UHGV virus genome: UHGV-0211079
Reading direction: 5' to 3' (one strand)
Source: a virus
Length of the DNA stretch: 36,325 nt
The notes under the pieces were generated by a model. The model made no database searches. It was not told the DNA's origin and was given only the letters and a program-made list of their open reading frames with translations. Positions 5,111 to 32,670 of the stretch are shown in pieces (positions within the stretch are counted from its first letter, which is position 1; every line of letters begins with the position of its first letter). The position numbers and the translations under genes were made by a program.

Positions 5111-5158
5111 ATACATAGAATTACAAAACAAACACAGATTGCGAGGTGGTGGAAATGG

Positions 5159-5914
5159 ATGGCTAGACAAAGAAATCCTATGCGAGATGAAGCATATCGC
5201 ATTTGGATAGAATCTAATAAACAAAAGCCATTGAAAGATATTGCTGAAGAATTGGGAGTATCTTCTTCAACTGTCCGAAAGTGGAAATCTGAGGATAAGT
5301 GGGATGGCGAAACGAAACGGAGCGCTCCGAATGAAAGAGAGCGTTACGAATCAATGCGCGGCAATCAAAATGCAAGAGGGAATCCTGGGGGAAAACCACC
5401 GCCTAATAATAAAAATGCTGTAAGCCATGGTTTATTTGCTAATTGGCTGCCAGACGATACGAAACAAATTATTCAGGAACTTTACACCTCAGAACCTGCA
5501 GATATTATTTGGAACAACATCATGATTCAATACACTGCTATCATCAGATCACAAAAGATTATGTATGTTAAAGATGAGTTTGACTCTACAGAGGATGTTG
5601 TAAGCGCAGAAATCAATCCGATGTTAGTAGATCCGGATACAAATAAAGCAGTCCAAACAAAGTTAACCCGACAATTTCAATACGCTTGGGATAAACAAGC
5701 TACTTTCTTAAATGCTCAATCAAGGGCGATGGGAACCTTGTCAAATCTCATCAAACAATTCTTGGCCATTGCTGATGAGCAAGATGAACGCAGGAAGAAG
5801 CTTGAGTTGATGGATGCTCAAATCGCAAAACTCAAATCATCTACTAATGATGATTCGAACACCGGCGGCGGTGATATTGTTATTGTCGATACTTGGGGTG
5901 ATTCAGATGAATAG
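5159..5914 (+). CDS. terS: terminase small subunit
   Basis: RBS gaggtggtgg, then ATG. N-terminal HTH (LKDIAEELGVSSSTVRKWKSEDKW) typical of Gram-positive phage TerS. Immediately upstream of and overlapping terL. Confidence 0.8.
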   Translation: MARQRNPMRDEAYRIWIESNKQKPLKDIAEELGVSSSTVRKWKSEDKWDGETKRSAPNERERYESMRGNQNARGNPGGKPPPNNKNAVSHGLFANWLPDDTKQIIQELYTSEPADIIWNNIMIQYTAIIRSQKIMYVKDEFDSTEDVVSAEINPMLVDPDTNKAVQTKLTRQFQYAWDKQATFLNAQSRAMGTLSNLIKQFLAIADEQDERRKKLELMDAQIAKLKSSTNDDSNTGGGDIVIVDTWGDSDE

Positions 5915-7220
5915 GATTGACATCCAAAAAGAAGTAAATCCTCATTTCAAGTCAGTTTGGATCAGTAAGAAACCATACAACATCCTACGAGGTGGACGGA
6001 ATAGTTTCAAATCGTCTGTCATTGCGCTCAAGCTTGTTTTTATGATGGTTGGATACATTATGACCAGAAGAAAAGCAAACGTTGTAATCATTCGTAAGGT
6101 GGCAAATACAATACGTGATTCAGTTTTCTTAAAAATCCAGTGGGCGCTTGGAAAATTCTTTCTCTTAGATCAGTTCAGCTGTACTGTTTCTCCATTTAAA
6201 ATCACACATAGGAAAACAGGTTCTACGTTTTATTTTTATGGCCAAGATGATTTTCAAAAGCTGAAATCTAACGACATCGGGAACATCATCGCTGTATGGG
6301 TCGAAGAAGCTGCAGAGTTTAACAGCGCAGAAGAATTTGACCAAATGAAGGCTACGTTTATGCGGCAGAAGCCTGTAGATGCCAAGCAAGTTCAGTTCTT
6401 TTATTCATACAACCCTCCAAGAAATCCGTATCACTGGATTAACGAATGGACCAATGAATTAGAAGGACATAAAGATTACTTGATTCATTCATCCAGCTAT
6501 AAAGATGATGCTTTAGGCTTTGTTACGCAGCAAATGATAGATGAGATCAACCGGATCAAAGAAAATGACTATGACTACTACTTGTATCTTTATGAAGGCT
6601 TGCCAGTTGGATTCCAAGACAATGTGTACAACGTTGAAACATTCAGAAAAATAGTAGATTTACCTAGCGATGACTATGTCACCGCTATTTTTTATTCCCT
6701 TGACGGTGGTCATGCTCAGTCAGCAACAACAGTTCTTTGTTTAGGATTGACGGCAAAACAAAAAGTCGTATTGCTAGACACTTACTATTATTCACCTGCC
6801 GGAAAAAGCGTGAAGCTTGCACCTTCCCAGCTTTCCACAGAGGTGCATAAGTTCATTTCTAAAACACTTGAAGATGATCGGTGGAAGAATGCTCAAGTTA
6901 TTAATAGAACGATTGATAGCGCTGAGGCGGCTCTTAGAAATCAGTATTATCTCGATTATCATATACGCTGGAATCCAGTCGCTAAGAAAGATAAACAAAC
7001 CATGATTGACTTTGCGACAAATTTATTTGCGCAAGGTCGTTTTTATTATCTCGATACAGAAAGCAACAAGATTTTCTATGAAGAACATAAGCACTACCGG
7101 TACAAAGAAGGTACTGCCGATACGGATAACCCGGTCGTAATCAAAGAAGATGACCATACCTGTGATGCATTTGAATATTTCTGCGTAGATAATGCATCTA
7201 TTTTAGGAATAGCAGTCTAG
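5907..7220 (+). CDS. terL: terminase large subunit (PBSX/XtmB-type)
   Basis: ATG at 5907 with RBS ggggtg; overlaps the terS stop. The ORF track start at 5814 would overlap terS by 100 nt. Walker-A-like GGRNSFKSSV, and acidic nuclease-domain residues near the C-terminus. Confidence 0.9.
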   Translation: MNRIDIQKEVNPHFKSVWISKKPYNILRGGRNSFKSSVIALKLVFMMVGYIMTRRKANVVIIRKVANTIRDSVFLKIQWALGKFFLLDQFSCTVSPFKITHRKTGSTFYFYGQDDFQKLKSNDIGNIIAVWVEEAAEFNSAEEFDQMKATFMRQKPVDAKQVQFFYSYNPPRNPYHWINEWTNELEGHKDYLIHSSSYKDDALGFVTQQMIDEINRIKENDYDYYLYLYEGLPVGFQDNVYNVETFRKIVDLPSDDYVTAIFYSLDGGHAQSATTVLCLGLTAKQKVVLLDTYYYSPAGKSVKLAPSQLSTEVHKFISKTLEDDRWKNAQVINRTIDSAEAALRNQYYLDYHIRWNPVAKKDKQTMIDFATNLFAQGRFYYLDTESNKIFYEEHKHYRYKEGTADTDNPVVIKEDDHTCDAFEYFCVDNASILGIAV

Positions 7221-19279: not shown

Positions 19280-20782
19280 TTGTATGGTGTTTATATTCAA
19301 CAAGGACCCAGTGGAGTGCAAGAAACGATTCATTCTCCGCAGACGGATGATTTAAAGTTGTTTGATCCGAAAATCGTAAAAGCTGTCGGCGCGATCGACA
19401 GCTTTTCTTTTTCTATATATCCCAATCATTCAGCGTATAACAAATTGAATTACCTCACAACATTAGTCGAAGTTTGGAACGAGATGGAAAATATCCTACT
19501 TTTTAAAGGTAGGGTATTAGAACCAACCGATTCAATGAAGGAAACTGGTGAGTTTTTTAAAGAAATTATATGTGAAGGAGAACTAGCTTATCTACATGAT
19601 AGCGTTCAAAAATGGGGCAAATGGCAAAATTTAACGCCGGCCCAGTTCTTTAAAGCTTTGATTGACGAACACAATAGTCAAGTGGAAGAGTACAAGCAAT
19701 TCACTGTTGGGCAAGTGAACGTAACAAACTCGACTGATAATGTTTACCGCTATACAGATGACGATGTGGACACATACGACACTATCCAAGATAAACTCAT
19801 AGAGCGCTTAGGTGGAGAACTGCAAGTTCGATATGAAAACGGCGTGCGGTATATCGATTATCTGGAACAAATTGGAGACAAAGGATCCCAAAAGATTGAG
19901 CTAAGTGTCAACTTACGATCTATTTCTAGAAAAGTAGATCCTACTGAAATGATAACAGTTCTAAAGCCTTTGGGAGAACGCTTAGAGCAAGAAGATGATA
20001 ATACCGATGCTTCTGATCCTCGCTTGACCATTGCCAGTGTCAACAACGGAAGTCCATATTTAAGAGACGAAGAAAAAGTCGCTCAATTTGGAGTGAGAGT
20101 AGCTGCACAAGTTTGGGATGATGTAACAGTTCCGTCAAACTTGAAATCAAAAGGCCAAAGTTTTCTTCAAAATCAAAAAACGGCGCTTGTTCAATATCAA
20201 ATTGATGCAGTTGATTTAGCACCATTAAAACTCACTATTGATAGTTTTAAATGTGGATGGTGGTACGAGACTTATAATCCTTTGATGGGAATTGACGAAG
20301 AGTTACGAGTTGTTGGACTGAGCATAAATTTAAATGATCCAACTGCTTCAACTTTGTCCATTGGAGACAAAATACTTTCTCAAGAACAGTATAATAAAAC
20401 CTTGAAACAACAGGCACAATCGGCCCAGCAGCTTAAAGGAAGTGTTAATCAGCAATCAAGAAAAATTGCAACAATTCAAAGTACATTATCAGAGACTGAA
20501 AAAAACCTATCAAAATTACAAGAAGCAGTATCTTCCTATTCCAGTGAAGTTCAAAATCAAATTACAAGTTTAATAGAAGAACTTCAGATTGTCATCAATG
20601 AAGTGCAGAACATTGCTGCTAAGATCCCTTCAACTGAAACAATTGAGGAACTTAAAAATGCTGTGCAAGGCCTTAATGTTTTTGTCGAAACACAAAAAAA
20701 TGTAAACTTAAAGCAAGCTGAGATAAATGCAGATATAGAAACACGAGTCAAAGCATTAGAAGAGAGCGGAGGTGAGGGTTAA
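19280..20782 (+). CDS. tail-associated protein / Tal (baseplate hub) with C-terminal coiled coil
   Basis: TTG start after aaggag. 500 aa in the position after Dit. C-terminal Q/E-rich coiled coil. Confidence 0.5.
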   Translation: MYGVYIQQGPSGVQETIHSPQTDDLKLFDPKIVKAVGAIDSFSFSIYPNHSAYNKLNYLTTLVEVWNEMENILLFKGRVLEPTDSMKETGEFFKEIICEGELAYLHDSVQKWGKWQNLTPAQFFKALIDEHNSQVEEYKQFTVGQVNVTNSTDNVYRYTDDDVDTYDTIQDKLIERLGGELQVRYENGVRYIDYLEQIGDKGSQKIELSVNLRSISRKVDPTEMITVLKPLGERLEQEDDNTDASDPRLTIASVNNGSPYLRDEEKVAQFGVRVAAQVWDDVTVPSNLKSKGQSFLQNQKTALVQYQIDAVDLAPLKLTIDSFKCGWWYETYNPLMGIDEELRVVGLSINLNDPTASTLSIGDKILSQEQYNKTLKQQAQSAQQLKGSVNQQSRKIATIQSTLSETEKNLSKLQEAVSSYSSEVQNQITSLIEELQIVINEVQNIAAKIPSTETIEELKNAVQGLNVFVETQKNVNLKQAEINADIETRVKALEESGGEG

Positions 20783-21039
20783 TGGCACAAGAAATTAATC
20801 GCGTGGGTAAAATCCAAAAAATTATGGAAAAGGATGTTTTGTTTAAAGAGCGGGAATTCGGAAATATTCAAGTGCTTGATGGTACATCTGTCACTATTGA
20901 AATAACTAATAAATCTGATGAAGGTATCTATGTTGAAACATTGAACATTCCGTATGAAGCTTTTCACTTAAATATCGAGAAAGCCCTTTGGGATTTAGTG
21001 GATGAAGTGAAAGAGAAAGGAGAACAGATTAATGTCTGA
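20782..21039 (+). CDS. hypothetical small baseplate-region protein
   Basis: ATG overlapping the previous stop. Confidence 0.45.
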   Translation: MAQEINRVGKIQKIMEKDVLFKEREFGNIQVLDGTSVTIEITNKSDEGIYVETLNIPYEAFHLNIEKALWDLVDEVKEKGEQINV

Positions 21040-22474
21040 TACGAATTATAGGGATCCAACTCACAATAATTTTCCAAATGATTATGATCAAACAAATGTT
21101 GACACTCGTGTATTAACAAGAACAAGAGCTGTACGAGAAAAAATGTATGGAATAGATACAAGAGAAGCTATGGCTCAAGCAGAAGAAATCAATTCTGTTG
21201 TTGCGAATGAAGCAAAGAAAGTAGCGAATGAGGTTGAACAGCGGCAAACAGATCTGGAGAATCGCTATGAGGATCAGATTGCTGGAAACACAGACATAAA
21301 CGAAGTAATTGATGCAAGACGTCCTCTAGCGACGAATCCTTATGAAACTTTAGGAGAAAGATTAAATGCAATGACTGAGCAAACCGAGGACGCCATTCGA
21401 CAGAAAAATCACGATGACGTTTTTAAGGCGCTTGAGGGCGGGATGCACCAATATCTAATTGATTTTTATGAAAATAATAGAAATGAGATTGGTAATGATG
21501 GTAGTGTGAAAATTAATCTCATAAATGATCTTCATGCTCAGAAAAGCGTTTATCCTTCGCCTTTAGTCGATCATGGTGAAAGTGCGAAGCGTGCGTTTCA
21601 ATATCTGCTGTTGCATGGTTTATTTTCTAAACATGTCGATTTTTCGATTATTAATGGCGATCAAATTCATGGTCGAGAGCCAATACAATTGTGTAAAGAC
21701 CGAAACCAATCGATTAAAAGTATTTGCAACTTATATGATTCTCCGGTTTATTATAATCTAGGCAATCACGAAGACGGCGATTGCTATAAAGTCCCTAAAA
21801 CAAGAGAAAATTTAATCACTAAACAGGAATTGCTTGATATTTATGGAATAAGTAGTTTTAATCAATCAATTATTAGTAAAGAGCAAAAGCTGAAAATCTT
21901 AATTGTAAGTGTTTATGATAACCCGGAAATTTATGTCGATGGAGTTAATATCCATCCTCGCGATCAACATTCTGTAATTACTAATCAAACTTTCGATTTT
22001 GTAAAAAAAGAATTAGAGGTTACTCCTGATGATTATTATGTTCTTGCTATTATGCATAATGTTATTTCTTCAAATGACTCTGACTATTCGGTAAATCATT
22101 ATGCATTAACTCGTTTATTTACAAACTTTAATCAATCAACTAGCGAGCATATCACGAGTAACTTGCCATACTATTCAATTGATTCTACTGTAGATTTTTC
22201 TAACCATCCAAAAAATCGGTTTATTGGAATTATTGGAGGTCACAGACATAAAGATGAGTATGATAACAGCCGTGGGTGGCATGATATCACCCGTACGTGT
22301 CAAGTATGTAGCGATCCTGCGGACCATACAGGCACACCGATTCGTGTTTTAGATACGGAAACTGAATTGATCACTGATATTGTTACTATCGATACTGAAG
22401 AAAAAAAGTTGTACATCAAACGATTTGGCTATGGTGAATCACTTGATCTATCTTTTGGAGGTATGACTGAATGA
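21032..22474 (+). CDS. baseplate/receptor-binding protein with calcineurin-like metallophosphoesterase domain
   Basis: RBS aaaggagaa. Metallophosphoesterase signature motifs in order: INGDQIHG (GD), LGNHEDG (GNHE), IIGGHRHKDE (GHxH). Sits in the tail-tip block. Confidence 0.55.
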   Translation: MSDTNYRDPTHNNFPNDYDQTNVDTRVLTRTRAVREKMYGIDTREAMAQAEEINSVVANEAKKVANEVEQRQTDLENRYEDQIAGNTDINEVIDARRPLATNPYETLGERLNAMTEQTEDAIRQKNHDDVFKALEGGMHQYLIDFYENNRNEIGNDGSVKINLINDLHAQKSVYPSPLVDHGESAKRAFQYLLLHGLFSKHVDFSIINGDQIHGREPIQLCKDRNQSIKSICNLYDSPVYYNLGNHEDGDCYKVPKTRENLITKQELLDIYGISSFNQSIISKEQKLKILIVSVYDNPEIYVDGVNIHPRDQHSVITNQTFDFVKKELEVTPDDYYVLAIMHNVISSNDSDYSVNHYALTRLFTNFNQSTSEHITSNLPYYSIDSTVDFSNHPKNRFIGIIGGHRHKDEYDNSRGWHDITRTCQVCSDPADHTGTPIRVLDTETELITDIVTIDTEEKKLYIKRFGYGESLDLSFGGMTE

Positions 22475-23265
22475 AAGATGTTTCTATAGAATTGTTATAT
22501 AATTTACTCATGAATCACATAAAGAATTCAGGAGACGAAGTCCACGAAATTGCCAGACCGGGAACTTCCGGATTTGTTCCTGGATCAGAAGCAGCTAGTT
22601 TGATACATGGGGTTCTCGGTGCAAAAGGTAGTTTGATAGGTCAAGCTCCTGATCTAAATCAGTTAAGACATGGTGGACTATATTTAATTGGAATGGATGC
22701 ATTAAATAGTCCTTGGACGGGTGGATATGTAAATGCTAATAGCAGTGTTTTTGTATTTCGGAATTTTTCAACAGCATTTGATGGTCGTGAAGATCAAATG
22801 GCCGTGATACAGATAGTAATAAGTCATAATCCCGATCCTGATATTGCATTTAGATATTCATCAAATAATGAATATCGTGAATGGAAATATCTTACTCCAT
22901 ATCTTCTTTTTACCGGAAGCGCAGGAGCAAATGGTACTAAGATAGCTCTTAAAAAAAATCTTTTTAGCTTTACTCATTTAGAAGTTGAATACAGCGGTAT
23001 AAATTCTAATTCTAGAAAAGTAGCGAAATTTCACATAATGGGAGCAACAGATGTTTATAATATTGATGTTCATAATCTTCCAAACAGCACAGATGCAGTG
23101 ATAAGAAAGCAAGAAGGAGAAATGAGGCTGAAACCTTCAGCAGATGGTATGTCATTTGATGTCTCTGAAACAACAATAAAAATAGACAGCGATGGAACAC
23201 ACTATGACGATGACACGCTCAATGTGATGCGGATTTATCGTATAAAAGGAATCAATAGTATATAA
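22471..23265 (+). CDS. tail fibre / receptor-binding head domain protein (hypothetical)
   Basis: ATGA overlap. Last gene of the tail block before a terminator. Confidence 0.45.
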   Translation: MKDVSIELLYNLLMNHIKNSGDEVHEIARPGTSGFVPGSEAASLIHGVLGAKGSLIGQAPDLNQLRHGGLYLIGMDALNSPWTGGYVNANSSVFVFRNFSTAFDGREDQMAVIQIVISHNPDPDIAFRYSSNNEYREWKYLTPYLLFTGSAGANGTKIALKKNLFSFTHLEVEYSGINSNSRKVAKFHIMGATDVYNIDVHNLPNSTDAVIRKQEGEMRLKPSADGMSFDVSETTIKIDSDGTHYDDDTLNVMRIYRIKGINSI

Positions 23266-23271
23266 GATTTT

Positions 23272-23298
23272 GAACACACTTGTTTAAGTGTGTTTTTT
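23272..23298 (+). terminator. intrinsic terminator ending the tail operon
   Basis: Perfect 9-bp hairpin aacacactt-gttt-aagtgtgtt followed by TTTTTTT. Confidence 0.7.
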
Positions 23299-23315
23299 TA
23301 TTGGGTGGTGAAAGA

Positions 23316-23558
23316 ATGCCAGAAAAAGATGACCTACTTTGGAGGGAAGTTTTACAGCGTTTGACTAGAATTGAGGAAAACACTAAACATGTTGACTTAA
23401 TAACTAGCAAAGCCAACAAAGCTCTAATCAAAGCAGAAGAAAATGAAAAAGACATTGCGGAAATTCGAGAGAATCAAAAATGGACATGGCGGACAATTGC
23501 CGGAATGGGCGTGTCCGTCATTGTTTATATGCTAACAAAATTTCTAGGAGGGCAATAA
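23316..23558 (+). CDS. XhlA-like holin-associated membrane protein
   Basis: ATG at 23316 after ggtggtga. N-terminal coiled coil and a single C-terminal TM segment. Confidence 0.5.
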   Translation: MPEKDDLLWREVLQRLTRIEENTKHVDLITSKANKALIKAEENEKDIAEIRENQKWTWRTIAGMGVSVIVYMLTKFLGGQ

Positions 23559-23560
23559 TT

Positions 23561-23821
23561 ATGAAGTTAACCACAGAACAATATAATATCGTGAAAAAAA
23601 TTCTGACCATTGGTGTACCAGGAATTTCCACACTGATTGTTACTTTAGGAGGCCTATACGGTTTTCCTACAGATGTCGCGGTAGGAACACTTACTGCACT
23701 CGCTACATTTGCAGGTGTCGTTTTACAAATTATCAGCAATAACTACGACAAAGAAAATAAAAATGATTATGGTGATGGCCAATCAGAAACAGAAAACTTA
23801 ATGAATAAAGACGAAGGGTAG
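23561..23821 (+). CDS. holin
   Basis: ATG after aggagggc. Two TM segments and a charged C-terminus, immediately upstream of the endolysin. Confidence 0.6.
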   Translation: MKLTTEQYNIVKKILTIGVPGISTLIVTLGGLYGFPTDVAVGTLTALATFAGVVLQIISNNYDKENKNDYGDGQSETENLMNKDEG

Positions 23822-23861
23822 TCGATTGACTGCTCTTTTATTTTAGAAAGGATGATATTAA

Positions 23862-24836
23862 ATGAGTATAAAATCAGTTCATGCAGGTCATGGAGGACGT
23901 AAAAATGGGAGCTCTTGGACAGATCCAGGGGCAGTTGGCTGTGGTTATAAAGAAGCAGATGTTGCTCGTACGATTACAGCTATGATGGTAAAGAAAGCTG
24001 GATTAAAAAATGTTACTGACAATGCAGGAACAACTGCAAATGCGATTGTAAATAACGTTGCGAACAATATCAATAAGTGTGCCGATGGTTGGCATATCTC
24101 CAATCATTTGAACGCTTTTAACGGATCAGCAACAGGAGTAGAAGTGTTGTACGGTTCGTCTGCCAGCAAAGCTACTGCTGCTAAACTCTCCGCAGCGATT
24201 GCAAAAGCATTAGGATTAGTGGATCGTGGTGCTAAAGATGGAACATGGTTAGGAATTGCACGTAATTCGGGAGCCGGAAAGAAAGTTCTCTTGATTGAAT
24301 GGGGATTTATTGACAACAAGAAAGACATGCAAGCACTGATGGCTAAAATGGAGAAAGCTGTTGATGCTGCATTGGCTGTATTCGGATATGTCACAAATTC
24401 ATCAAATGATAACTCAGCTGCAAATAAGCCTTCTACTTCCACAACCAGTTTCAAAGTGGGAGACAAAGTGAAGATTGTTGATGCACTTTACAAAGATAGC
24501 ACAGGAGCTGGGCGTTCGACTGCTAGTCGTGGCAAAATAGGAACAATCAAGCGTGTAGTTAGCGGAAACAAACCATATCTTATAGACAGTCTTGGATGGG
24601 CGCATAAGAACGACATTCAGCTTGTGACAACTAGTAATGCGACGCACAAAGTTGGCGATACTGTCACAGTTCAAAGTTTCGCCACGAATTACCAAACTGG
24701 TCAAAAGATTCCGAATTGGGTTAAAGGACAAAAGTACAAAATTAAGCAAGTGAAATCTGTTAACCAATCAAAATCTAAAAAGGCATACTTGCTGGACAGT
24801 GTGAACTCTTGGTTCCTTGAACAAGATGTTAAGTAA
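23862..24836 (+). CDS. endolysin: N-acetylmuramoyl-L-alanine amidase (Amidase_3 type) with two C-terminal SH3b-like cell-wall-binding repeats
   Basis: N-terminus MSIKSVHAGHGG... Repeated KVGDKVKIV... and HKVGDTVTVQ... modules. Confidence 0.85.
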   Translation: MSIKSVHAGHGGRKNGSSWTDPGAVGCGYKEADVARTITAMMVKKAGLKNVTDNAGTTANAIVNNVANNINKCADGWHISNHLNAFNGSATGVEVLYGSSASKATAAKLSAAIAKALGLVDRGAKDGTWLGIARNSGAGKKVLLIEWGFIDNKKDMQALMAKMEKAVDAALAVFGYVTNSSNDNSAANKPSTSTTSFKVGDKVKIVDALYKDSTGAGRSTASRGKIGTIKRVVSGNKPYLIDSLGWAHKNDIQLVTTSNATHKVGDTVTVQSFATNYQTGQKIPNWVKGQKYKIKQVKSVNQSKSKKAYLLDSVNSWFLEQDVK

Positions 24837-24871
24837 ATTAAGAAAACTCTTTTTCATATCCGATTAGGAGG

Positions 24872-24900
24872 TCTTTTTTTATTGAAATGCAAACTGACGT
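24872..24900 (+). promoter_or_regulatory. sigma-70 promoter for the post-lysin moron
   Basis: -35 TTGAAA (24872-77), 17-nt spacer, -10 TATAAT (24895-24900). Confidence 0.6.
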
Positions 24901-24935
24901 TTGCTATAATTGCCACATAATCCTCATACGATTAT

Positions 24936-24979
24936 ATCTGCTATAGGAAGTCTAGGAAAACGCTTGTTTTCGAGGCTTC
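24936..24979 (+). promoter_or_regulatory. leader hairpin + U-tract (possible attenuator) in the moron 5' UTR
   Basis: 8-bp stem ggaagtct/aggcttcc with an inner aaaac/gtttt hairpin, followed by TTTTGGTTT, about 45 nt before the start codon. Confidence 0.35.
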
Positions 24980-25024
24980 CTTTTGGTTTAATTTAATTAG
25001 CAGATATGATTGGGAGTGAATATT

Positions 25025-25561
25025 ATGGATTCAGTAGGAATTAACGCCGGCTATAAACCATCTTTGGTAAAATTCTATTTTCATGATGAAAATAGGAATG
25101 AAATCAATAATATTGTAAAAATAAATGTAGGTGAATCAATTGAATTATCCGTAACAGCGATATTTACAGGAATAAATAGCGAATTTTTAAACTACAGCGA
25201 ACCCAGGGATACAAGATTTATCAACCTGTGTGTCTATGAGAAAAATAGGAGCGGAAAAGGCTATAAAATAATTAAGTTTTTTTCATTTAATATTGACTAT
25301 TTTTATAGTAAACAAGATATTGTAGAAATTTCAGCACCGTTAGTAACAATAACTGAAAATACCCAACCACTTCAGGGAGAATTTGAAGGCATAGAATTTG
25401 ATAAAACGTATAATTATAGAGACACTTTTATGGCTTTAAAAATATTTTACTCTTCTGAAAAAGTTAAAAATATTGAAGAATTAGATAGGCTCTTTAATAA
25501 GGTAAGCGAAGCTGTTTTAGATACAAAGCTTCCATTTATGGTGGTGGGAGAAAGTGCCTGA
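25025..25561 (+). CDS. hypothetical moron protein A (178 aa)
   Basis: ATG at 25025 after gggagtga (the ORF track started at TTG 25010). Very AT-rich codon usage unlike the structural genes. No motif recognised. Confidence 0.5.
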   Translation: MDSVGINAGYKPSLVKFYFHDENRNEINNIVKINVGESIELSVTAIFTGINSEFLNYSEPRDTRFINLCVYEKNRSGKGYKIIKFFSFNIDYFYSKQDIVEISAPLVTITENTQPLQGEFEGIEFDKTYNYRDTFMALKIFYSSEKVKNIEELDRLFNKVSEAVLDTKLPFMVVGESA

Positions 25562-25940
25562 AAAAGCTCGTGGCCAGGTTATTAGTTTACCCCAATTTGA
25601 AGGTCTCAGTATTTCAGATGGAAGTGGCGGAGGAGATGATGGCCAAATGACAAAATACGTTACAAAGCAAGAATTCGATTTAACAGTAAAAGAATTAACT
25701 CACCAAATTGAAATGAATCAAGAAAGATTAAATTCCAAATTAGATTCAATAGGTCAAAAAATAGATACTGGTGGAGAAAAAAATTCAGAAAAAATAAGTA
25801 GCGCAAAAGAAGTGCTGTCTCAAAAAATAGACTTTTTAGATACAGATATAAAAAAAACAGATTCTAAAACAAACTGGATAATTGGTTTAATTTTAACGTC
25901 ATTTTTAATTCCAGTATTATTAAAATACTTAGGAATTTAA
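25554..25940 (+). CDS. hypothetical tail-anchored membrane protein B (128 aa)
   Basis: GTG overlapping the stop of protein A. Gly-rich N-terminus, central coiled coil, single C-terminal TM segment (NWIIGLILTSFLIPVLLKYLGI). Confidence 0.5.
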   Translation: MPEKARGQVISLPQFEGLSISDGSGGGDDGQMTKYVTKQEFDLTVKELTHQIEMNQERLNSKLDSIGQKIDTGGEKNSEKISSAKEVLSQKIDFLDTDIKKTDSKTNWIIGLILTSFLIPVLLKYLGI

Positions 25941-25945
25941 AAATA

Positions 25946-25969
25946 CCCCTTACTCGTTCGAGTAGGGGG
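25946..25969 (+). terminator. GC-rich hairpin ending the moron transcript
   Basis: 10-bp stem ccccttactc-gttc-gagtaggggg. Only a weak U-tract on plus; TATTTTT follows on the minus strand. Confidence 0.4.
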
Positions 25970-26036
25970 ATTATATTCATTTTACTTGCAGTAATTTAGT
26001 TTATGCTATAAATTAGTAGATGCGTGCAATACTTTA

Positions 26037-26100
26037 CGAAGAGTAGTTAGGCGGTGGAAACTTGGGGAAGTGCGCCTAACACTCTTCGATTTTTATTTTA
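26037..26100 (+). repeat. long stem-loop + U-tract element, copy A
   Basis: 16-bp stem with a 1-nt bulge (cgaagagtagttaggcg / cgcctaacactcttcg), 19-nt loop containing cttggggaag, followed by ATTTTTATTTTA. Confidence 0.5.
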
Positions 26101-26203
26101 TCATTATTTCATTTTAATAGATATTATTGTTTAGAATATCGTCTAAAATATTTTTATGTTTTTCAGCATATTATAATTGGGAATTCATGACACAATAGAG
26201 AAA

Positions 26204-26237
26204 CTCCTTACTCAATTAGAGTAGGGAGCCCTTTTTT
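26204..26237 (+). terminator. intrinsic terminator (possible 3' end of a small RNA)
   Basis: 10-bp stem ctccttactc-aatta-gagtagggag followed by CCCTTTTTTC. Stem sequence is related to the 25946 hairpin. TATAAT lies about 30 nt upstream at 26172-77. Confidence 0.5.
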
Positions 26238-26314
26238 CATTGCTTCAAATTCAAATCATTTGCAAAAAATAATCTTTTTTAATATGTTTATATTACAACA
26301 TGCATTTACTCTAA

Positions 26315-26388
26315 GAAGAGTGCTAGGTGATTAAGAAGATTGGGGAAGACTATCTTAACGTATGCCTAACACTCTTCGTTTTCTATTG
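26315..26388 (+). repeat. long stem-loop + U-tract element, copy B
   Basis: 13-bp stem gaagagtgctagg / cctaacactcttc with one C.A mismatch. Loop contains ttggggaag. Followed by GTTTTCTATTG. Shares the 15-nt gcctaacactcttcg with copy A. Confidence 0.45.
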
Positions 26389-26418
26389 TAACATAGTTAT
26401 GATTGAATAGATGCTTGC

Positions 26419-26432
26419 GACGAAATTTCGTC
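26419..26432. promoter_or_regulatory. perfect 14-bp palindrome GACGAAATTTCGTC (operator-like)
   Basis: Exact 7+7 inverted repeat in the intergenic region. Confidence 0.3.
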
Positions 26433-26520
26433 AATATATATTCAAGATAGGCTATTGAATTATCAATCAAAATCGATTACACTTTATTTACCTAGAACCT
26501 TTCATTTTTATTTCTGTGAA

Positions 26521-26549
26521 CCCACTCTCCCCCGAGAGTGGGTGTTTTT
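26521..26549 (+). terminator. intrinsic terminator
   Basis: 9-bp stem cccactctc-cccc-gagagtggg followed by TGTTTTTA. Confidence 0.55.
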
Positions 26550-26607
26550 AACTACCAATGTAGATCCTTATATGTAATTTTTAGTATTTTAAAAAATGAT
26601 TTACTAA

Positions 26608-26637
26608 TTGTAACTATAATAGTATTATTGGTATAAT
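26608..26637 (+). promoter_or_regulatory. sigma-70 promoter for the PanA-like/toxin operon
   Basis: -35 TTGTAA (26608-13), 18-nt spacer, -10 TATAAT (26632-37). Confidence 0.5.
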
Positions 26638-26670
26638 TTTGTTAGAATAATAATAAAAGGAGTGATAAGA

Positions 26671-27156
26671 ATGTTGAAAGCTAAAGATATTGCTGAATAT
26701 TTTTTACGAAAAGACGTTGATGGCAATTGCTTTAATTTCAATTTACGCGAAGAAAACGGACATACATTTTATGAAGGAAACGCTCGGTTAAATAAATATC
26801 TGCATATGTCGCAAAATTTATTTCTTGCTAAATACGATACACTATTATTTGAAGATAAATTAGTTGCTTATGATAACGGAGCAGTTGTTCCTTCAGTACA
26901 AAGAAATTTTTCAGTTCTTGTAGCAAAAAAAAATGAACCTTTTTTGCCGGAAAATGTTAAAGAATTTTTAGATAAAGTGTATATTTTTTTCTCGAATGCT
27001 ACTATTGATGAGCTGATTGAACTATCGCACGAGGATAATGAATGGATTGAAAAAAATAGAAACAGATTAACAGGGCAAGAAATGAATACATTATCACGAT
27101 CTGATGAGTATAAACAACAGTATTCAGATGCTTTGTTTGTAATTGATAGGATGTGA
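26671..27156 (+). CDS. Panacea-domain (DUF4065, PanA/SocA-like) putative antitoxin
   Basis: ATG at 26671 after the strong RBS aaaggagtga. N-terminus KDIAEYFLRKD, and NARLNKYLHMSQNLFLAKYDTLLFEDKLVAYDNGAVVPSV matches the Panacea pattern L.K.L...Q....LF.E...A...G.VVP.V as recalled. Confidence 0.65.
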   Translation: MLKAKDIAEYFLRKDVDGNCFNFNLREENGHTFYEGNARLNKYLHMSQNLFLAKYDTLLFEDKLVAYDNGAVVPSVQRNFSVLVAKKNEPFLPENVKEFLDKVYIFFSNATIDELIELSHEDNEWIEKNRNRLTGQEMNTLSRSDEYKQQYSDALFVIDRM

Positions 27157-27601
27157 AGCTTTGTTTGTTGTAGGTCAAGTTCTTTCTCTAAAAATTCGTT
27201 TTAATAATAATGGGGTGATTTCTAATAATAATCACCCCTATATCATTGTAGATGTAGATACTATCAACAATCTTATTGAGATAGCTCAAATCGATAGTTT
27301 AGAATTTAAACCACATAAAGCCGCTTTTAAATCTAACCACGTAATATCGTGTTCAGATCCAAATGAAACCGTTATAGATAAAGATAGCTTTGTGCAGATG
27401 GATAATATATTCAAGGTTGATGTTTGTCCAGAATTACTCAAATGTAGAAGACAACCTGATAAATTATCGGATTTTAAACTTAAAAAGCTAATAGAGGCAT
27501 ATCAAGAATACCAAAGTAATAATGAAATCGATGAAATAAAGATTGTATACATGAATAGGGAAGAAATTTGTAGTTTAAATGGTCTTTCTTTAAGCGCATA
27601 A
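27143..27601 (+). CDS. putative toxin partner with weak MazF/PemK-like (CcdB/MazF fold) similarity
   Basis: TTG at 27143 (or 27161) overlaps the upstream gene by 14 nt; first in-frame ATG is only at residue ~86. GQVLSLKIRFNNNG....HPYIIV resembles the Kid/PemK N-terminus (GEIWLVSLDP...RPVLIV). SFVQMDNIFKVD resembles the C-terminal S..ADQIRTID motif. About 50 aa C-terminal extension. Confidence 0.4.
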   Translation: MIGCEALFVVGQVLSLKIRFNNNGVISNNNHPYIIVDVDTINNLIEIAQIDSLEFKPHKAAFKSNHVISCSDPNETVIDKDSFVQMDNIFKVDVCPELLKCRRQPDKLSDFKLKKLIEAYQEYQSNNEIDEIKIVYMNREEICSLNGLSLSA

Positions 27602-27632
27602 AATAATATTTTTAGTTTGAATATATACTCCA

Positions 27633-27657
27633 AACCACTATATTTAGTGGTTTTTTT
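27633..27657 (+). terminator. intrinsic terminator after the TA-like operon
   Basis: 8-bp stem aaccacta-tatt-tagtggtt followed by TTTTTTT. Confidence 0.6.
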
Positions 27658-27909
27658 GCACAAAAAAGCACAGCGTATTTACATACACTGCGCAAGTGAA
27701 ACTATGTTTCTACATCGTAATCATTATAGCGTATTTAACGTTCTATTTAAAGACTCGAATTCAATCATAATCTTCGTTTTGCCAAGTACACTATATTTCC
27801 GCACAACAAACTGTTTACGATCGTTAAACTCACCAGCCACCACAACCTGCATTCCTTCATCCACATCGGCTAGAAAATTAAACTATGTGCAGCAATCAGA
27901 CAGTTTACA

Positions 27910-28179
27910 TTATCCAGCGAGAACCGAACCAAAGGGGTCCTCGACATTTTCAACACTCGTATCTTCGAAACTACACCTTTCAATGATTTCATAGTGATCG
28001 CCTCCGTATCGTTGTATATAGTAACTATAATCAGTTTTGCCTAACGTTAGATTGACATAATGCTCAACGCAACGAGTTCCAAAAACACACTCTTGAGATT
28101 CGGATATAGAATCCGGAAACTCTTCTAGAAACTCTGAATAAGAAATATAGCCCTGCTCATACTGACTGATTACATTCAT
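27910..28179 (-). CDS. hypothetical acidic protein (89 aa)
   Basis: ATGA overlap with the upstream YolD-like gene. Followed in the same frame by two stops and further open sequence (possible decayed longer gene). Confidence 0.4.
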   Translation of the reverse strand: MNVISQYEQGYISYSEFLEEFPDSISESQECVFGTRCVEHYVNLTLGKTDYSYYIQRYGGDHYEIIERCSFEDTSVENVEDPFGSVLAG

Positions 28180-28535
28180 GAGAGATCAAACCATTTCAAT
28201 TCTCCTTGATAAAATTCTACATTTCGAATTTCCTCATATTCAACGAGAGTAGAATCAACGTAAATTCCTATTTCATTATGCCCGGAAAGGCGGCCTACAA
28301 TGTCCGGCATGAATTTGTCATTCTGTGTATAGTTGAGCTGAACAGCAATCTTTTTATTTTTCAAAAGAGCCTCTTGTAAAAATTCTCCAATTTCTTCAAT
28401 TTCCATTTCCGGTTTAGGTAAATTAGTGTAAGCCCGTTCCTCTTCAACTTTATTTACACTTGTTGTATGTTCCGATAAAAAGAAACCTATCCATTTTAAT
28501 TTTTTCCGGTCCTCGTAAGGCTTAATCATTCCCAT
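28176..28535 (-). CDS. YolD-like protein
   Basis: Minus-strand ATG at 28535 after gaggagtga. EDRKKLKWIGFFLSEHT matches the YolD-like R-G/K-KW..F.LPEH signature. Confidence 0.5.
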   Translation of the reverse strand: MGMIKPYEDRKKLKWIGFFLSEHTTSVNKVEEERAYTNLPKPEMEIEEIGEFLQEALLKNKKIAVQLNYTQNDKFMPDIVGRLSGHNEIGIYVDSTLVEYEEIRNVEFYQGELKWFDLS

Positions 28536-28638
28536 AATTATCACTCCTCACGGAAATTATACGAACGTTTGTTCGTTTTGTAAAGCGAACAGATCTTTAA
28601 ATTGTAACGTGAGAACGAGTAGAAAAGATGAGAATTTT

Positions 28639-28662
28639 TGGTGATAGTTTCGGTGATAGCGA
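28639..28662. repeat. arm-type direct repeat copy 1 (tggtgatagtttcggtgatagcga)
   Basis: Internal tandem of ggtgatag. 22/24 identical to the copy at 28903. Confidence 0.55.
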
Positions 28663-28902
28663 AAAGAAAATATCGAAATGATAGAAAAGAAAAATTAGAG
28701 GAGAAACGTTGATATAATGGTATTTTTAAAATAGAGAAATACTAGAAAAAGGGTAGAATGTATAAGAAAAACATGTTCGCATTGCTTGGCAAACCAGGCT
28801 TCGAAGAGCTTGCAAAAGAATTGAACGAACGTCTATAAATCAATGCTTTTACCACTTATATAAATTGGTGGTGAACGAAACATGTTCGCTTTGATTCATA
28901 AC

Positions 28903-28926
28903 TGGTGATAGTTTTGGTGATAGTGA
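28903..28926. repeat. arm-type direct repeat copy 2 (tggtgatagttttggtgatagtga)
   Basis: See copy 1. Located just 3' of the integrase stop. Confidence 0.55.
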
Positions 28927-28932
28927 CAGAGT

Positions 28933-28957
28933 AAAAGCACTCATTGTGAGTGCTTTT
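28933..28957 (+). terminator. hairpin + T-tract overlapping the integrase stop
   Basis: aaaagcactca-ttg-tgagtgctttt followed by TTTTCTTTCG on the plus strand. Probably blocks plus-strand read-through into int. Confidence 0.4.
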
Positions 28958-30164
28958 TTCTTTCGCTTTCGATGTAGTTTTCGAACTGTTCCATGGACCT
29001 CTTTTTGACCTCTGGAGAAATATGGGCATAGATTTGAGTTGTTGAAATATCCTTGTGACCAAGAAAGTCTTTTATGTCTTCTAAGGACAATCCAGCTTGA
29101 CGAGATCGGACAGCAAAAGTATGGCGGCCATCGTGGACTCTAATTTTCGGCAATTCAGCTTTTTTAGCAATCCGATTAAATGCGCCATTCACTGATCGAT
29201 CACGGACAATTTTCCCTTTGTATCTCTTGCTGGTTTGCAAGAAGATAAATTGTTCTCCATCTTCAGTGGAAGGGAAGGTACCAAAGATGTTTAAGATATG
29301 ATTTCTAAAAGCAAGCAGAGCTTGTTTACTTCTTTTGGTCATTGGCATGCTTCTGACTCCTGCCGGTGTTTTCGGATCGTCTGTAATAATTGCATTGACG
29401 TTTTCACCTTTTTCAACTGCTCCTAAACGTTCTCTTTCAATGCTTATCATGTTCCCGCCAAAGTCAATATCTTGCCACTGTAATCCCATTACTTCTGATT
29501 TCCTCAATCCTTGATCGAAGATTAATAGGAAAAAGGGGTACCACAAAACCTCAGATTCTTTTTTCGCAAACTCTAGAAATCTATCTGCTTGCTGCAAATC
29601 GTAGTATCTGACAGATTCCTTTTTCTCAATCATTCTTGGAAACTCAACAAACTGAGTAGGGTTTTCCTTTATATATCCTAATTGAATTGCTTTTTTAAAA
29701 GCATTGCTGAGAGTAGCATTTACGCTTTTGACAGTAGTGATGGACAACCCTTGACCACTTCGACCTAGTCCTTTCTTATTTAACAGCATATTAATGAACT
29801 TTTGATGGTTGGCTCGTGTGTATTTGTTTAAAGAATATTTCCCTATATAGGGTTTAATATACATTCGTATATTCGCTCTGTGGACCACACGAGTGCCTTC
29901 TTTTACAGCCTGCTTATAATTAGTTACCCAATCCTCAAGAAATTCTTCTATTGTTAAATTCCGAGGATTTTCTTTGAAATATTCCTCGGATGCTATTTTT
30001 CCTTCAATAATTTTGGCATAACTATTTGCTTCTTCATAGGACTTAAATCCTTTTTTGTGTATCTTGTTTTGTTTACCAGTTCCGGGATTAATTCCATTAG
30101 AAACGAAAACTTCATATCTATATTGTTTTGTTTTCTTCAAATAGTATTTCTTTATAGAAGCCAC
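28941..30164 (-). CDS. int: tyrosine-type site-specific integrase
   Basis: C-terminal catalytic motifs RVHDGRHTFAVRS...LGHKDISTTQIYAH (R..H.R...Y). Likely GTG start at 30164 with RBS aaaggag 7 nt upstream (MASIKKYYLKK...); the track ATG at 30191 lacks an RBS. Confidence 0.9.
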   Translation of the reverse strand: MASIKKYYLKKTKQYRYEVFVSNGINPGTGKQNKIHKKGFKSYEEANSYAKIIEGKIASEEYFKENPRNLTIEEFLEDWVTNYKQAVKEGTRVVHRANIRMYIKPYIGKYSLNKYTRANHQKFINMLLNKKGLGRSGQGLSITTVKSVNATLSNAFKKAIQLGYIKENPTQFVEFPRMIEKKESVRYYDLQQADRFLEFAKKESEVLWYPFFLLIFDQGLRKSEVMGLQWQDIDFGGNMISIERERLGAVEKGENVNAIITDDPKTPAGVRSMPMTKRSKQALLAFRNHILNIFGTFPSTEDGEQFIFLQTSKRYKGKIVRDRSVNGAFNRIAKKAELPKIRVHDGRHTFAVRSRQAGLSLEDIKDFLGHKDISTTQIYAHISPEVKKRSMEQFENYIESERKKHSQ

Positions 30165-30295
30165 TAGAATTCTCCTTTCGTAATTTCGCATAATAAATTC
30201 GAATAATCGAGTGATTTCAATCGAATAATCACTTGAATATTAAAGAATTCGAAGTTTTTTGTTAATTATCCGAACGTATGTTCTTTTCGATTTAA

Positions 30296-30322
30296 AAAGA
30301 AAAGCCCGAAGGCTAATCTTCA
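30296..30322 (-). terminator. weak terminator after the repressor-operon distal gene
   Basis: Minus strand: agcc-ttcg-ggct hairpin followed by TTTCTTTTTAAA. Confidence 0.3.
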
Positions 30323-31120
30323 TCATAGACCCAATAAATCGTTTTTCTTTTTTTCAAATTCATCTTTAGAGATAATCCCATCGTCTAAGAGTTCTTTGAA
30401 TTTTCGTATCTCATCAGCGTTACTCAAAGTCTCTATTGTTGATTCTTGTTGTTCTAAATCTGCAGAGTCTTCAAATTGAGATTCTAATAAATAGACAATT
30501 TTTTCTGCTTCTTTTACAGCCGTTTTGTAAATTATAGAAGTTCTCTTAGTTTTGGAACTTATCAAATCAATAAAAAGAACAGGGGTTTCAATATCGGCCA
30601 TTAGTATTTTAACTTGTAAGGATTCAATAATAGAGGTTGAATGTTTTTTACCGGTAATGGCACCAACAATTGCTCCAGCACCTCCAAACGTTAATGCTCC
30701 AACAGCAGCTCTTCCCAAGCCTCCCGAGGTGACTGATCCTCCGTTTTCAACTATTTCATATCCTCGTATTGAATCTAAATCATGAATAGTAAGGCCATTT
30801 ATTAGGCCTTTAATCTTGAATTGTCTTTTTTGGCTATCAATGAATAAGTAGGAAGAAACCTTTAAATCCGCCTTAAATTCCTTTAGCCGATTGGCATTTT
30901 CTATTTGTTGTTGTTTTTTATCGAGCTTCAATGCTTTCTTTTCAGCTTTGGCATCTCTTTTTAAATCGTCCAATGTAATAGATCTAATCTCGTTAAAAGA
31001 ATTCGTCATGCCATATCCTGCTTTTTTCATACATTTTGCACAAGCACGTTGACCATCAGATATCTTATAAGATCCAAATCCAACTTTTTTACCACAGACA
31101 GCACACACTTTTTCAGCCAT
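30323..31120 (-). CDS. zinc-ribbon / glycine-zipper / SHOCT-domain membrane-associated protein (candidate superinfection-exclusion factor)
   Basis: N-terminal CAVCGKK...CAKC. Central GGLGRAAVGALTFGGAGAIVGAITG glycine zipper. C-terminal EIRKFKELLDDGIISKDEFEKKKNDLLGL, SHOCT-like. RBS aggaga. Same strand as and contiguous with ImmA/XRE. Confidence 0.55.
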   Translation of the reverse strand: MAEKVCAVCGKKVGFGSYKISDGQRACAKCMKKAGYGMTNSFNEIRSITLDDLKRDAKAEKKALKLDKKQQQIENANRLKEFKADLKVSSYLFIDSQKRQFKIKGLINGLTIHDLDSIRGYEIVENGGSVTSGGLGRAAVGALTFGGAGAIVGAITGKKHSTSIIESLQVKILMADIETPVLFIDLISSKTKRTSIIYKTAVKEAEKIVYLLESQFEDSADLEQQESTIETLSNADEIRKFKELLDDGIISKDEFEKKKNDLLGL

Positions 31121-31131
31121 CTTTCCATCTC

Positions 31132-31605
31132 CTAAAAATTATTGAATGATTTTAAAACTGCAACAGTCCCATCTGGTTGAAATAGGAGAGTGTAGTTGTT
31201 TTCTGTTTTAATGCCATCCCATTTTCTCGCATACCACTTAATGGCATCTTTAAAAGTTATTTCCGGAATTTGCAAATATTCAGCACATTCCCAGACACTA
31301 GTACATCCGAATTCAAAACAGTTAATGATATCAGTAGGTGAAACGAGCATCACAGCTCCAATATCACGAGCTTTACGTTCTTGTTTCATACATTCTGGCT
31401 TGCTTAGATCTGATATATCTCCTACAGATGTGAGATAGTGAGCAATTTCCTCCGCAATCGTAGCCGTCAGTTCAGCTGTTGATTGTCCAGGTCTTAAATA
31501 AATTGTATCCCCAATAATTAATCCGTCCTGCTGTACAGGCATACTTGGTTCGAACTTGTACTTCAGCTCGGGATACTGAGCCATAAGTTGTTCAGCTTCA
31601 TTCAT
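31132..31605 (-). CDS. ImmA/IrrE-family metallopeptidase
   Basis: HEXXH motif in AEEIAHYLTS. Directly downstream of the XRE repressor on the same strand. Confidence 0.8.
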   Translation of the reverse strand: MNEAEQLMAQYPELKYKFEPSMPVQQDGLIIGDTIYLRPGQSTAELTATIAEEIAHYLTSVGDISDLSKPECMKQERKARDIGAVMLVSPTDIINCFEFGCTSVWECAEYLQIPEITFKDAIKWYARKWDGIKTENNYTLLFQPDGTVAVLKSFNNF

Positions 31606-31617
31606 TCAAAATTTTCC

Positions 31618-31941
31618 CTACTCTCCGCCATGATCTCTCATTTTTATAAATTTGATGAAATCTTGAACTTCTTTTTTCTGTTTTTCAGTCAAGTCATCAT
31701 CTACGTGAGTTGCAACAAGGAGGTTTGAATCCTCATTTAACTGATCAGTTCTACCATGAAGATAGTCTAAGCTGACTTCAAAATAATCAGCAATCTTATT
31801 TTGAATATCTGTATCTGGGGTTCGCTTACCTTGTTCATAAGAGGCGTACGTGGTTTTTGCGACGCCTAAAATATCAGCCATATTTTGTTGGGTTAAATTT
31901 TTTTTAGATTTTCTCAAACTTTTTAAGCGTTCAGCAAACAT
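31618..31941 (-). CDS. XRE-family HTH lysogeny repressor (CI-like)
   Basis: RBS aaggagg. HTH LTQQNMADILGVAKTTYASYEQGKRTP. Divergent from a Cro-like gene. Confidence 0.85.
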   Translation of the reverse strand: MFAERLKSLRKSKKNLTQQNMADILGVAKTTYASYEQGKRTPDTDIQNKIADYFEVSLDYLHGRTDQLNEDSNLLVATHVDDDLTEKQKKEVQDFIKFIKMRDHGGE

Positions 31942-32101
31942 ACAAATCGACCTCCTTATCTAATATTACTACGACAAACAGCGTACAAAAAGGACAAAAT
32001 AAAAAGTATCAAAAAAAGAGTACAAAACTATTTACAAAGTACGCGTAATGTATTATTATAAAAGTACGCAATACGTATCTCTTTTGAAAGGGGTGAAGAT
32101 T
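31942..32101. promoter_or_regulatory. genetic switch region: divergent promoters and repeated operator half-sites
   Basis: Repeated AAAGTAC(G/A)C motifs at ~31979, 32011, 32037 and 32068, including the palindrome TACGCGTA. Rightward promoter -35 TTTACA (32031-36), 17-nt spacer, -10 TATTAT, overlapping the operators. Confidence 0.5.
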
Positions 32102-32332
32102 ATGCCAGACTGGTTGAAAAAAATACGAGAACAACACGGATACACTCAAGAAAGCTTTGCTAGACGTGTCGGGATCGCCAAAACAACGTATTCATCATAT
32201 GAACAAGGATATCGCACGCCATCTGTAAACACAGCAAAAAAAATGGCAAGCGTACTTGGAGTTCCATGGACTATTTTTTTTGATGATGATGTACTCGATA
32301 CGTATTATAAAAAGGAGGCAACACATTGCTAA
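32102..32332 (+). CDS. Cro-like XRE-family HTH regulator
   Basis: ATG at 32102 after aaaggggtga. HTH YTQESFARRVGIAKTTYSSYEQGYRTP. The track start at 32048 lies within the operator region. Confidence 0.75.
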   Translation: MPDWLKKIREQHGYTQESFARRVGIAKTTYSSYEQGYRTPSVNTAKKMASVLGVPWTIFFDDDVLDTYYKKEATHC

Positions 32333-32670
32333 AGCAACAAGTATTGAAATCAGAGAATATCCAATCCATCGAGCTTAACGCTAACGGGTCAGATAAGTGC
32401 TATACGAATCCAATTGTGATTAACGGACTAAAAGCTGGCAAAGGTATCAAAGCAGTCAAATTAGATTTAGTAGCTGATAAAGTTCCTAAAGTGATCATTA
32501 TCGGAACACCTCCACTTATTTCAGATGAAGTCAATAAAGGGTGGGGCTTAGTTGATTCTGAATGGGAAGATACTACAGACGGTACGGTAACGGTTAATGT
32601 AAAAATTGAAGGTGTACCAGAAAACACACTACCACTTGATTATCTGGTAAATAACCAAGCGGAAAAATGA
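32326..32670 (+). CDS. hypothetical early protein
   Basis: TTG start after the strong RBS aaaggagg (7-nt spacing); overlaps the cro stop. Confidence 0.5.
   Translation: MLKQQVLKSENIQSIELNANGSDKCYTNPIVINGLKAGKGIKAVKLDLVADKVPKVIIIGTPPLISDEVNKGWGLVDSEWEDTTDGTVTVNVKIEGVPENTLPLDYLVNNQAEK

Follow-up and report, generated by a model that had tools for sequence, protein, structure and literature searches.

Introduction

Toxin-antitoxin pairs in which a Panacea-domain antitoxin (PanA) accompanies a toxin (PanT) were described by Kurata et al. (2022, PNAS, PMC8832971). PemK is among the PanT domains in that survey, and two PanTs predicted to be EndoA/PemK/MazF-like, those of Pseudomonas moraviensis and Bifidobacterium ruminantium, were validated and specifically inhibit protein synthesis. 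Clusters T5, T6 and T9 of the accompanying Dataset S1 combine A-T (antitoxin-first) order, PanAs without an N-terminal domain, and toxins with a PemK/MazF annotation or a MazF-like prediction; members of T9 include Enterococcus hermanniensis, Tetragenococcus halophilus and Listeria phage B025. PanA has been found in complex with its cognate toxins (PMC8832971), and stand-alone Panacea proteins act by direct toxin neutralisation (PMC10440598). Here we analyse a two-gene cassette, panA-panT, in a stretch of 36,325 nucleotides (nt) from the virus genome UHGV-0211079, referred to below as the window. We consider it probable that this cassette is a type II PanAT toxin-antitoxin moron of an Enterococcus phage, in which PanT would be a ribonuclease (RNase) of MazF/Kid fold and PanA its direct neutraliser, serving prophage stabilisation and/or abortive infection.

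A Panacea protein followed by a MazF-fold toxin, antitoxin first, is a pairing already described in 2022. An earlier sequence-only reading of the window had been unable to place this combination in any described family, and had ranked it as the best candidate for a new defence module. Given the clusters of Kurata et al., the validated MazF-like PanTs, and the gp27/gp28 gene pair of phage B025, the pairing is not new, and the supposed new module is one more PanAT, whose MazF-fold toxin is divergent.

Comparison with described systems

With the MazF/PemK-like PanATs of Kurata et al. the window cassette shares a Panacea-only PanA, the antitoxin-first order, genes that abut or overlap by a few nucleotides, a toxin whose likeness to MazF shows only in sensitive or structural searches, and carriage on phages and other mobile elements. 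The window toxin belongs to a separate, unannotated family, phrog_13386, which was set against the 88 clusters of Kurata et al. by accession numbers alone. Unlike their PanTs, it has a histidine at the position of the catalytic arginine and a conserved C-terminal element of ~25 amino acids (aa). Searching Dataset S1 for taxa that carry the PanT family (Eubacterium oxidoreducens, Anaerovibrio, Phascolarctobacterium and C. botulinum) returned nothing, while a Beduini entry in T9 (WP_041138017.1) with a gap of -14 is suggestive of the family lying within that cluster.

Listeria phage B025 (NC_009812) has the same two-gene order, with gp27 annotated as 'DUF4065 domain-containing protein' and gp28 as 'MazF-like growth inhibitor', the two genes overlapping by 4 nt. 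The B025 pair also occupies the same slot as that of the window, past the holin and endolysin genes and ahead of the phage attachment site (attP) and integrase, which are followed by metalloprotease and repressor genes. The two PanAs are homologous (26% identity, E 4e-6). In contrast, gp28 (130 aa) has no detectable sequence similarity to the window PanT (BLASTP E 32, hhalign probability below 1%) and, unlike it, retains the RP motif. We therefore reject a single family comprising PanT and gp28, and place the window toxin family on a different branch of the same fold.

The canonical MazEF and Kis-Kid systems (PF02452) are likewise encoded antitoxin first, and an endoribonuclease activity is likely to be common to them and the window cassette. 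They differ from it in that the window antitoxin is a Panacea protein rather than a MazE/AbrB-fold protein or Kis, and the toxin fails the Pfam model, has His in place of Arg and carries the extra C-terminal element. The type III toxins CptN, ToxN and AbiQ resemble PanT in their MazF-related fold with extra helices and in size (about 150-170 aa), with CptN giving the longest structural alignment to PanT, and they resemble the cassette in being phage-borne or acting in abortive infection. Unlike in type III systems, no repeat-RNA antitoxin is found around the window cassette (25900-28000), and a protein antitoxin gene is strictly linked to the toxin.

The panA and panT genes

Two open reading frames (ORFs) lie on the same strand within 26500-27700, with hairpin terminators on either side (Table 1). 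The product of the first, panA, scores 41.1 bits with Pfam PF13274 SocA_Panacea, where the threshold is 25.7 (E 3.8e-10), covers positions 1-112 of the 113-position profile, and so passes the check on which the sequence-only reading had staked its assignment of a Panacea domain. It also matches phrog_1281 (E 1.8e-15), is labelled by NCBI as 'type II toxin-antitoxin system antitoxin SocA domain-containing protein', and has orthologues that match PF13274 in 19 of 21 cases. The NCBIfam search gave sub-threshold matches only (SocA_antitoxin, 17 bits against 190), and a search of the PDB with a PanA family profile brought up no solved relative.

The second gene had been described as starting with TTG, overlapping panA by 14 nt and lacking an in-frame ATG for about 85 codons. 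The ORF is as described, running from TTG 27143 to TAA 27601 with its first in-frame ATG at codon 86; what changes is the preferred start. Another TTG, at 27161, is 4 nt past the panA stop codon and 7 nt past AGGA (27150-27153), and is more likely to be the panT start than TTG 27143, because of this AGGA spacing, the NCBI gene call of the 146-aa form, and the family N-termini, which begin at TTG 27161 as well. The gap between the genes is accordingly either +4 nt (TTG 27161), without overlap, or -14 nt (TTG 27143). Both TTG codons are kept in relatives that are 72-80% identical.

The panT product has no match in Pfam, NCBIfam or PADLOC, and is a member of phrog_13386, whose annotation names no function. 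A word-indexed search yielded 219 homologues, and an exhaustive scan yielded 208 cluster representatives at E <=1e-3 among 1.84 billion. The family is distributed mainly in gut Firmicutes, with scattered matches in other phyla, and a search of IMG/VR yielded three loci. A tblastn search of isolate-phage and plasmid collections returned marginal matches only (27-30% identity), in records of C. botulinum type C/D toxin phages and plasmids, one of which overlaps an annotated 'Panacea domain-containing protein'.

Linkage, co-diversification and decay

Wherever the upstream DNA could be read, a panA homologue lies directly 5' of the toxin gene (50 of 50 loci). The distance from the PanA stop to the GQ motif of the toxin is 5-21 nt in 49 of these loci, across many genera, and 70 nt in the remaining one (L044). 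Both features by which Kurata et al. (2022, Fig. S1) recognised PanATs, namely gene spacing and reciprocity (toxin relatives that stand beside a PanA), are found here. Since panT has 219 homologues and the gene order is strictly conserved, both genes are real.

The two proteins have also diversified together: pairwise distances among PanAs and among PanTs are correlated with a Mantel r of 0.909, a value reached in 0 of 2000 permutations. The pair persists while the flanking genes vary among loci, which include prophages, mobilisable elements and islands. Neighbours at three loci (L008 1126-2872, L005 3163-3920 and L001 4502-5785) are a DarT gene with a Macro-domain gene (DarTG-like), HicA/HicB ~2 kb downstream, and a Mob_Pre relaxase; an integrase is present at the DarT-Macro site too. 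One further locus, L031, has a second, degenerate PanA/PanT-like copy at 5113-6029, ~2 kb downstream of its intact pair.

Decay of the pair is biased towards the toxin. Among 48 species-representative genomes (L011-L058), PanT is truncated or frameshifted next to an intact PanA in eight loci, both genes are damaged in three (L048, L049 and L051), and PanA alone is damaged in none. As indirect evidence read from genome sequences, this is the pattern to be expected if gene 2 were harmful in the absence of gene 1.

Table 1. Features of the panA-panT cassette, its surroundings in the window, and related loci. Positions without an accession or locus name refer to the window.
Feature	Position	Strand	Details
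XhlA, Dp-1-type holin, amidase endolysin	23280-24836		
Two genes between endolysin and PanAT	25010-25940	+	183 aa; 128 aa with weak XhlA-like coiled coil
Upstream intrinsic terminator	26520..26543	+	10-bp stem with 6 GC pairs, then T run; dG -18.2 kcal/mol, z -4.97
Imperfect palindrome over -35 to -10	26606..26638		16-nt arms, 81% complementary
Candidate sigma-70 promoter, extended -10	26608..26637	+	TTGTAA (26608-26613), 18-nt spacer, TGgTATAAT (TATAAT 26632-26637)
Shine-Dalgarno GGAG of panA	26659..26662	+	8 nt 5' of ATG; read from sequence
panA	26671..27156	+	161-aa stand-alone Panacea protein without extra N-terminal domain; ATG 26671 to TGA 27156
AGGA ribosome-binding site of panT	27150..27153	+	Within panA 3' end, 7 nt 5' of TTG 27161; read from sequence
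panT	27161..27601	+	146-aa MazF-fold toxin candidate; alternative TTG 27143 gives 152 aa and 14-nt overlap with panA
Cassette intrinsic terminator	27632..27657	+	9-bp stem (27632-27640 with 27645-27653), 4-nt loop, U run
Convergent terminator of minus-strand neighbour genes	27668..27693	-	11-bp stem, then T run; dG -17.1, z -4.15
Two small genes by PanAT	27910-28544	-	89 aa; 122 aa with weak YolD-like match, phrog_16307
Tyrosine integrase	28941-30191	-	Then ImmA-like metalloprotease and repressor
Sister-prophage cargo	L067 and L072 3272-4828	-	
Sister-prophage cargo	L069 and L071 4668-4985	-	
Sister-clade loci	L059 25-1121; L060 2344-3453; L062 1044-2228		
Marginal PanT matches	H6 NC_015417.1 155349-155738; H7 NZ_CP063823.1 127849-128082; H5 ACSJ01000013.1 7314-7547		
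Loci with broken PanT and intact PanA	L030, L047, L050, L052, L053, L055, L056, L057		

Predicted fold, putative active site and C-terminal element of PanT

Structure prediction supports the proposal that gene 2 encodes a MazF/Kid-fold protein, so that the second check named in the sequence-only reading, kinship of this protein with the CcdB/MazF fold, likewise turned out as that reading had expected. The AlphaFold2 model of PanT, computed with 24 homologues as input, has a mean predicted local distance difference test score (pLDDT) of 92.1 and a predicted template modelling score (pTM) of 0.87. In Foldseek searches with this model, MazF-mt3 was found in the PDB with E 2.8e-4, and phage proteins labelled 'PemK-like' or 'endoribonuclease' top the list of viral models. 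PanT is thus predicted to share the MazF/Kid architecture of an SH3-like beta-barrel and a C-terminal helix. At the sequence level, hhalign aligns the wider PanT family with MazF/Kid weakly but colinearly (E 6.5e-4, 106 columns), with H/RP set opposite RP and DKDSFVQ opposite DKDSVIL; the S. aureus MazF sequence in this comparison is identical to PDB 4of1_A. Weak matches to Pfam PemK_toxin come from two of 24 close relatives of PanT (E 2.1e-5 at best) and from six of 31 wider ones (E 1.4e-3 at best).

The catalytic Arg of MazF is located at the end of the beta1-beta2 loop (R25 in B. subtilis, R29 in E. coli). The PanT residue aligned with it is His31 (HPYIIV against RPVVII); the segment that had been read as 'RP.IIV' in fact has the letters HPYIIV. 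A Ser or Thr in MazF stabilises the transition state (T48 in the B. subtilis protein). Ser52 of PanT, which ends the equivalent strand (E44-52), aligns with 'VSS' of a sister clade described below, and the ungapped hhalign alignment puts it two residues off the T48 position.

PanT helix 110-126 is the counterpart of the C-terminal helix of MazF. As this helix belongs to the MazF core, the tail beyond the core amounts to ~25-30 aa, rather than the ~50 aa of the sequence-only reading. It contains a conserved element of ~25 residues, IDExKxVYMxKxEIxxLN.

A distant sister clade (P0238-P0277) retains the MazF-type Arg, with the motifs RPFLVI and LNVSSxxGKE. Its toxins come after a longer Panacea protein (216-243 aa) and adjoin Bro-N, ANT or pRha phage genes; the distant members P0251 and P0258 likewise come after a Panacea gene.

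Cassette boundaries and putative expression signals

The cassette had been proposed to be a self-contained unit with its own promoter and terminator, located in a temperate phage's accessory region, and its layout agrees with this. The left-hand terminator is predicted to end the preceding lysis/accessory transcription unit and so to form the left boundary of the cassette; as it is strong and precedes the promoter, the PanAT unit is bracketed. On the right, the convergent terminator of the minus-strand neighbours appears to form the other boundary. The terminator of the cassette itself, weaker than the left-hand one and previously placed at 27633-57, has its stem at 27632-27653. A 64-nt fold around it, which includes a second small hairpin, has a predicted free energy (dG) of -11.8 kcal/mol and a z of -3.0; the terminator is 100% conserved in five Enterococcus prophage copies, and it is missing from the output of a simple consensus terminator scan.

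The candidate sigma-70 promoter that had been noted at 26608-37 is also present, with 10 of 12 consensus matches plus the TG. The stretch 26000-28200 has 20 promoter-like sites, against 12 +/- 3.9 in shuffled sequences; this one ranks with the best of them and is plausible as the PanAT promoter, though statistically unexceptional for such AT-rich DNA. An 80%-identical relative (L073) retains the -10 and the TG, and no alignment with the window was possible for the promoter region of another (L074). The five Enterococcus copies are ~100% identical from about 26418 to about 27760, and are therefore uninformative on promoter conservation. The AGGA ahead of panT is kept in L073 and L074, yet is also under panA coding constraint.

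Only two close inverted repeats of >=16 nt occur in 20500-32400: the palindrome that spans the promoter and a second repeat at 32029-32058. The former is a possible, weakly supported operator of PanAT. A conserved operator at this site is not supported, as the palindrome is kept in neither L073, where the left arm differs, nor L074. The repeat at 32029-32058, between the repressor and the early genes, is probably the operator of the lysogeny switch.

Phage genome and cassette slot

The window is the genome, in circularly permuted form, of a temperate Enterococcus phage of E. gallinarum type, with a replication module that is 98% identical to that of Enterococcus phage EG-TP1. With the lysis genes on one side of PanAT and the integrase on the other, the cassette has the position typical of a 'moron', past the lysis genes and ahead of attP. 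The gap of ~400 bp ahead of the integrase 3' end (28545-28940) is the likely attP, and in integrated copies host genes (GDPD, ThrE) begin ~2 kb beyond PanAT.

In sister Enterococcus prophages with identical PanAT, the two genes found in the window between endolysin and PanAT are replaced by a 518-aa SIR2_2 gene or by a MazG gene. We regard this slot, on the strength of these gene replacements, as a variable cargo site. The small minus-strand genes on the other side adjoin PanAT in all Enterococcus prophage copies.

Elsewhere in the window, the 265-aa product of a gene at 30323-31120 (minus strand) contains DUF4428 and SHOCT domains (phrog_888, E 2.5e-58). This gene is flanked by the integrase on one side and by the ImmA-like metalloprotease and repressor on the other, and gp35 of Listeria phage B025 is placed likewise. 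A tRNA gene at 4264-4337 (plus strand; Rfam RF00005 at 63 bits) separates the replication module from the structural genes.

Proposed mechanism and alternative explanations

In the type II system that we favour, the cassette's own promoter would produce a bicistronic panA-panT mRNA in the lysogen independently of late transcription, as the sequence signals indicate. From published PanAT work, panT would be translationally coupled to panA, with PanA made first, and the stand-alone PanA would bind PanT directly and thereby neutralise it. Free PanT, judging by its predicted fold and by the validated MazF-like PanTs, would act as a dimer that cleaves RNA sequence-specifically, so that translation stops. 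The system probably stabilises the prophage, defends the lysogen against other phages in the manner of abortive infection, or does both.

Several observations weigh against this interpretation. The window PanT has no match to PF02452 PemK_toxin at E up to 10. A PanT family profile retrieved no MazF among PDB sequences, only chance matches, and PADLOC has no model for either product and matched neither. His31 is invariant in the PanT subfamily, and His occupies the Arg position in 40 of 44 pairs; with His at the catalytic-Arg position, RNase chemistry is not guaranteed for PanT. Errors in the assembly of metagenome-assembled genomes could account for part of the toxin-biased decay; such errors should strike both genes about equally. 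Finally, it is position and neighbours only that suggest a role in defence.

One alternative is that the pair is not an active toxin-antitoxin system, with PanT catalytically dead or non-toxic and both proteins engaged in some other phage or regulatory function. The replacement of the MazF Arg by His in the PanT subfamily, where the sister clade retained Arg, would fit such a loss, as would the lack of a PADLOC match. An inactive toxin would be difficult to reconcile with the 26 invariant columns, including H31, across 24 toxins that are 47-80% identical to the window protein, which argue for purifying selection on a functional site. His is, moreover, a competent general acid/base in many RNases. 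The decay counts (eight toxin-only against zero antitoxin-only losses) are such as a harmful gene produces, and the strict panA-panT linkage speaks for a functioning pair as well. From the experimental side, tests in E. coli showed the phage-borne, MazF-like B025 gp28 to be 'not toxic', and there were PanAs that did not neutralise their toxins (Kurata et al., PMC8832971); by analogy, the former result calls for caution with the window PanT. On balance we regard an inactive pair as unlikely.

About as unlikely is a more elaborate version of the toxin-antitoxin interpretation, in which the His-type PanT is a mechanistically distinct MazF offshoot whose C-terminal element confers another RNA target or another way of activation, and in which PanA acts as the infection sensor of prophage abortive infection. 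Such a toxin could form a bridge between type II MazF and type III CptN.

PanT might instead be a CcdB-like gyrase poison, which would have the same fold and DNA gyrase as its target. This we consider improbable. The sole Pfam family matched by relatives of PanT is PemK_toxin, and the sequence-level alignment goes to MazF motifs. The gyrase-binding C-terminal tip of CcdB is Trp-Gly-Ile, whereas PanT contains no Trp at all and has its extra conserved element at the C-terminus instead; PanT shows neither this tip nor CcdB as its best structural match.

The idea that PanT is a ToxN/CptN/AbiQ-like toxin of type III, with an RNA as its real antitoxin and the Panacea gene as a mere neighbour, is rejected as far as sequence can tell and has hardly any probability left, as 25900-28000 holds neither a tandem repeat array nor an Rfam match and the upstream space is wholly taken by a conserved protein gene that co-diversifies with the toxin.

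Significance

The window cassette does not represent a new class of system. Its novelty is modest and lies in a small unannotated toxin family, the Arg-to-His swap and the C-terminal element. The analysis provides a functional label for phrog_13386, a family that databases call 'hypothetical', and extends the partner list of Panacea, already a very promiscuous antitoxin, by a further toxin of MazF fold. The sole biochemical curiosity is the natural Arg-to-His swap, which, with an Arg-keeping sister clade, offers MazF enzymology a neat comparison. For the enterococci, the region from endolysin to attP emerges as a variable cargo site of their prophages, at which SIR2, MazG and PanAT genes swap, which may help those who are charting prophage-encoded defence in these bacteria.

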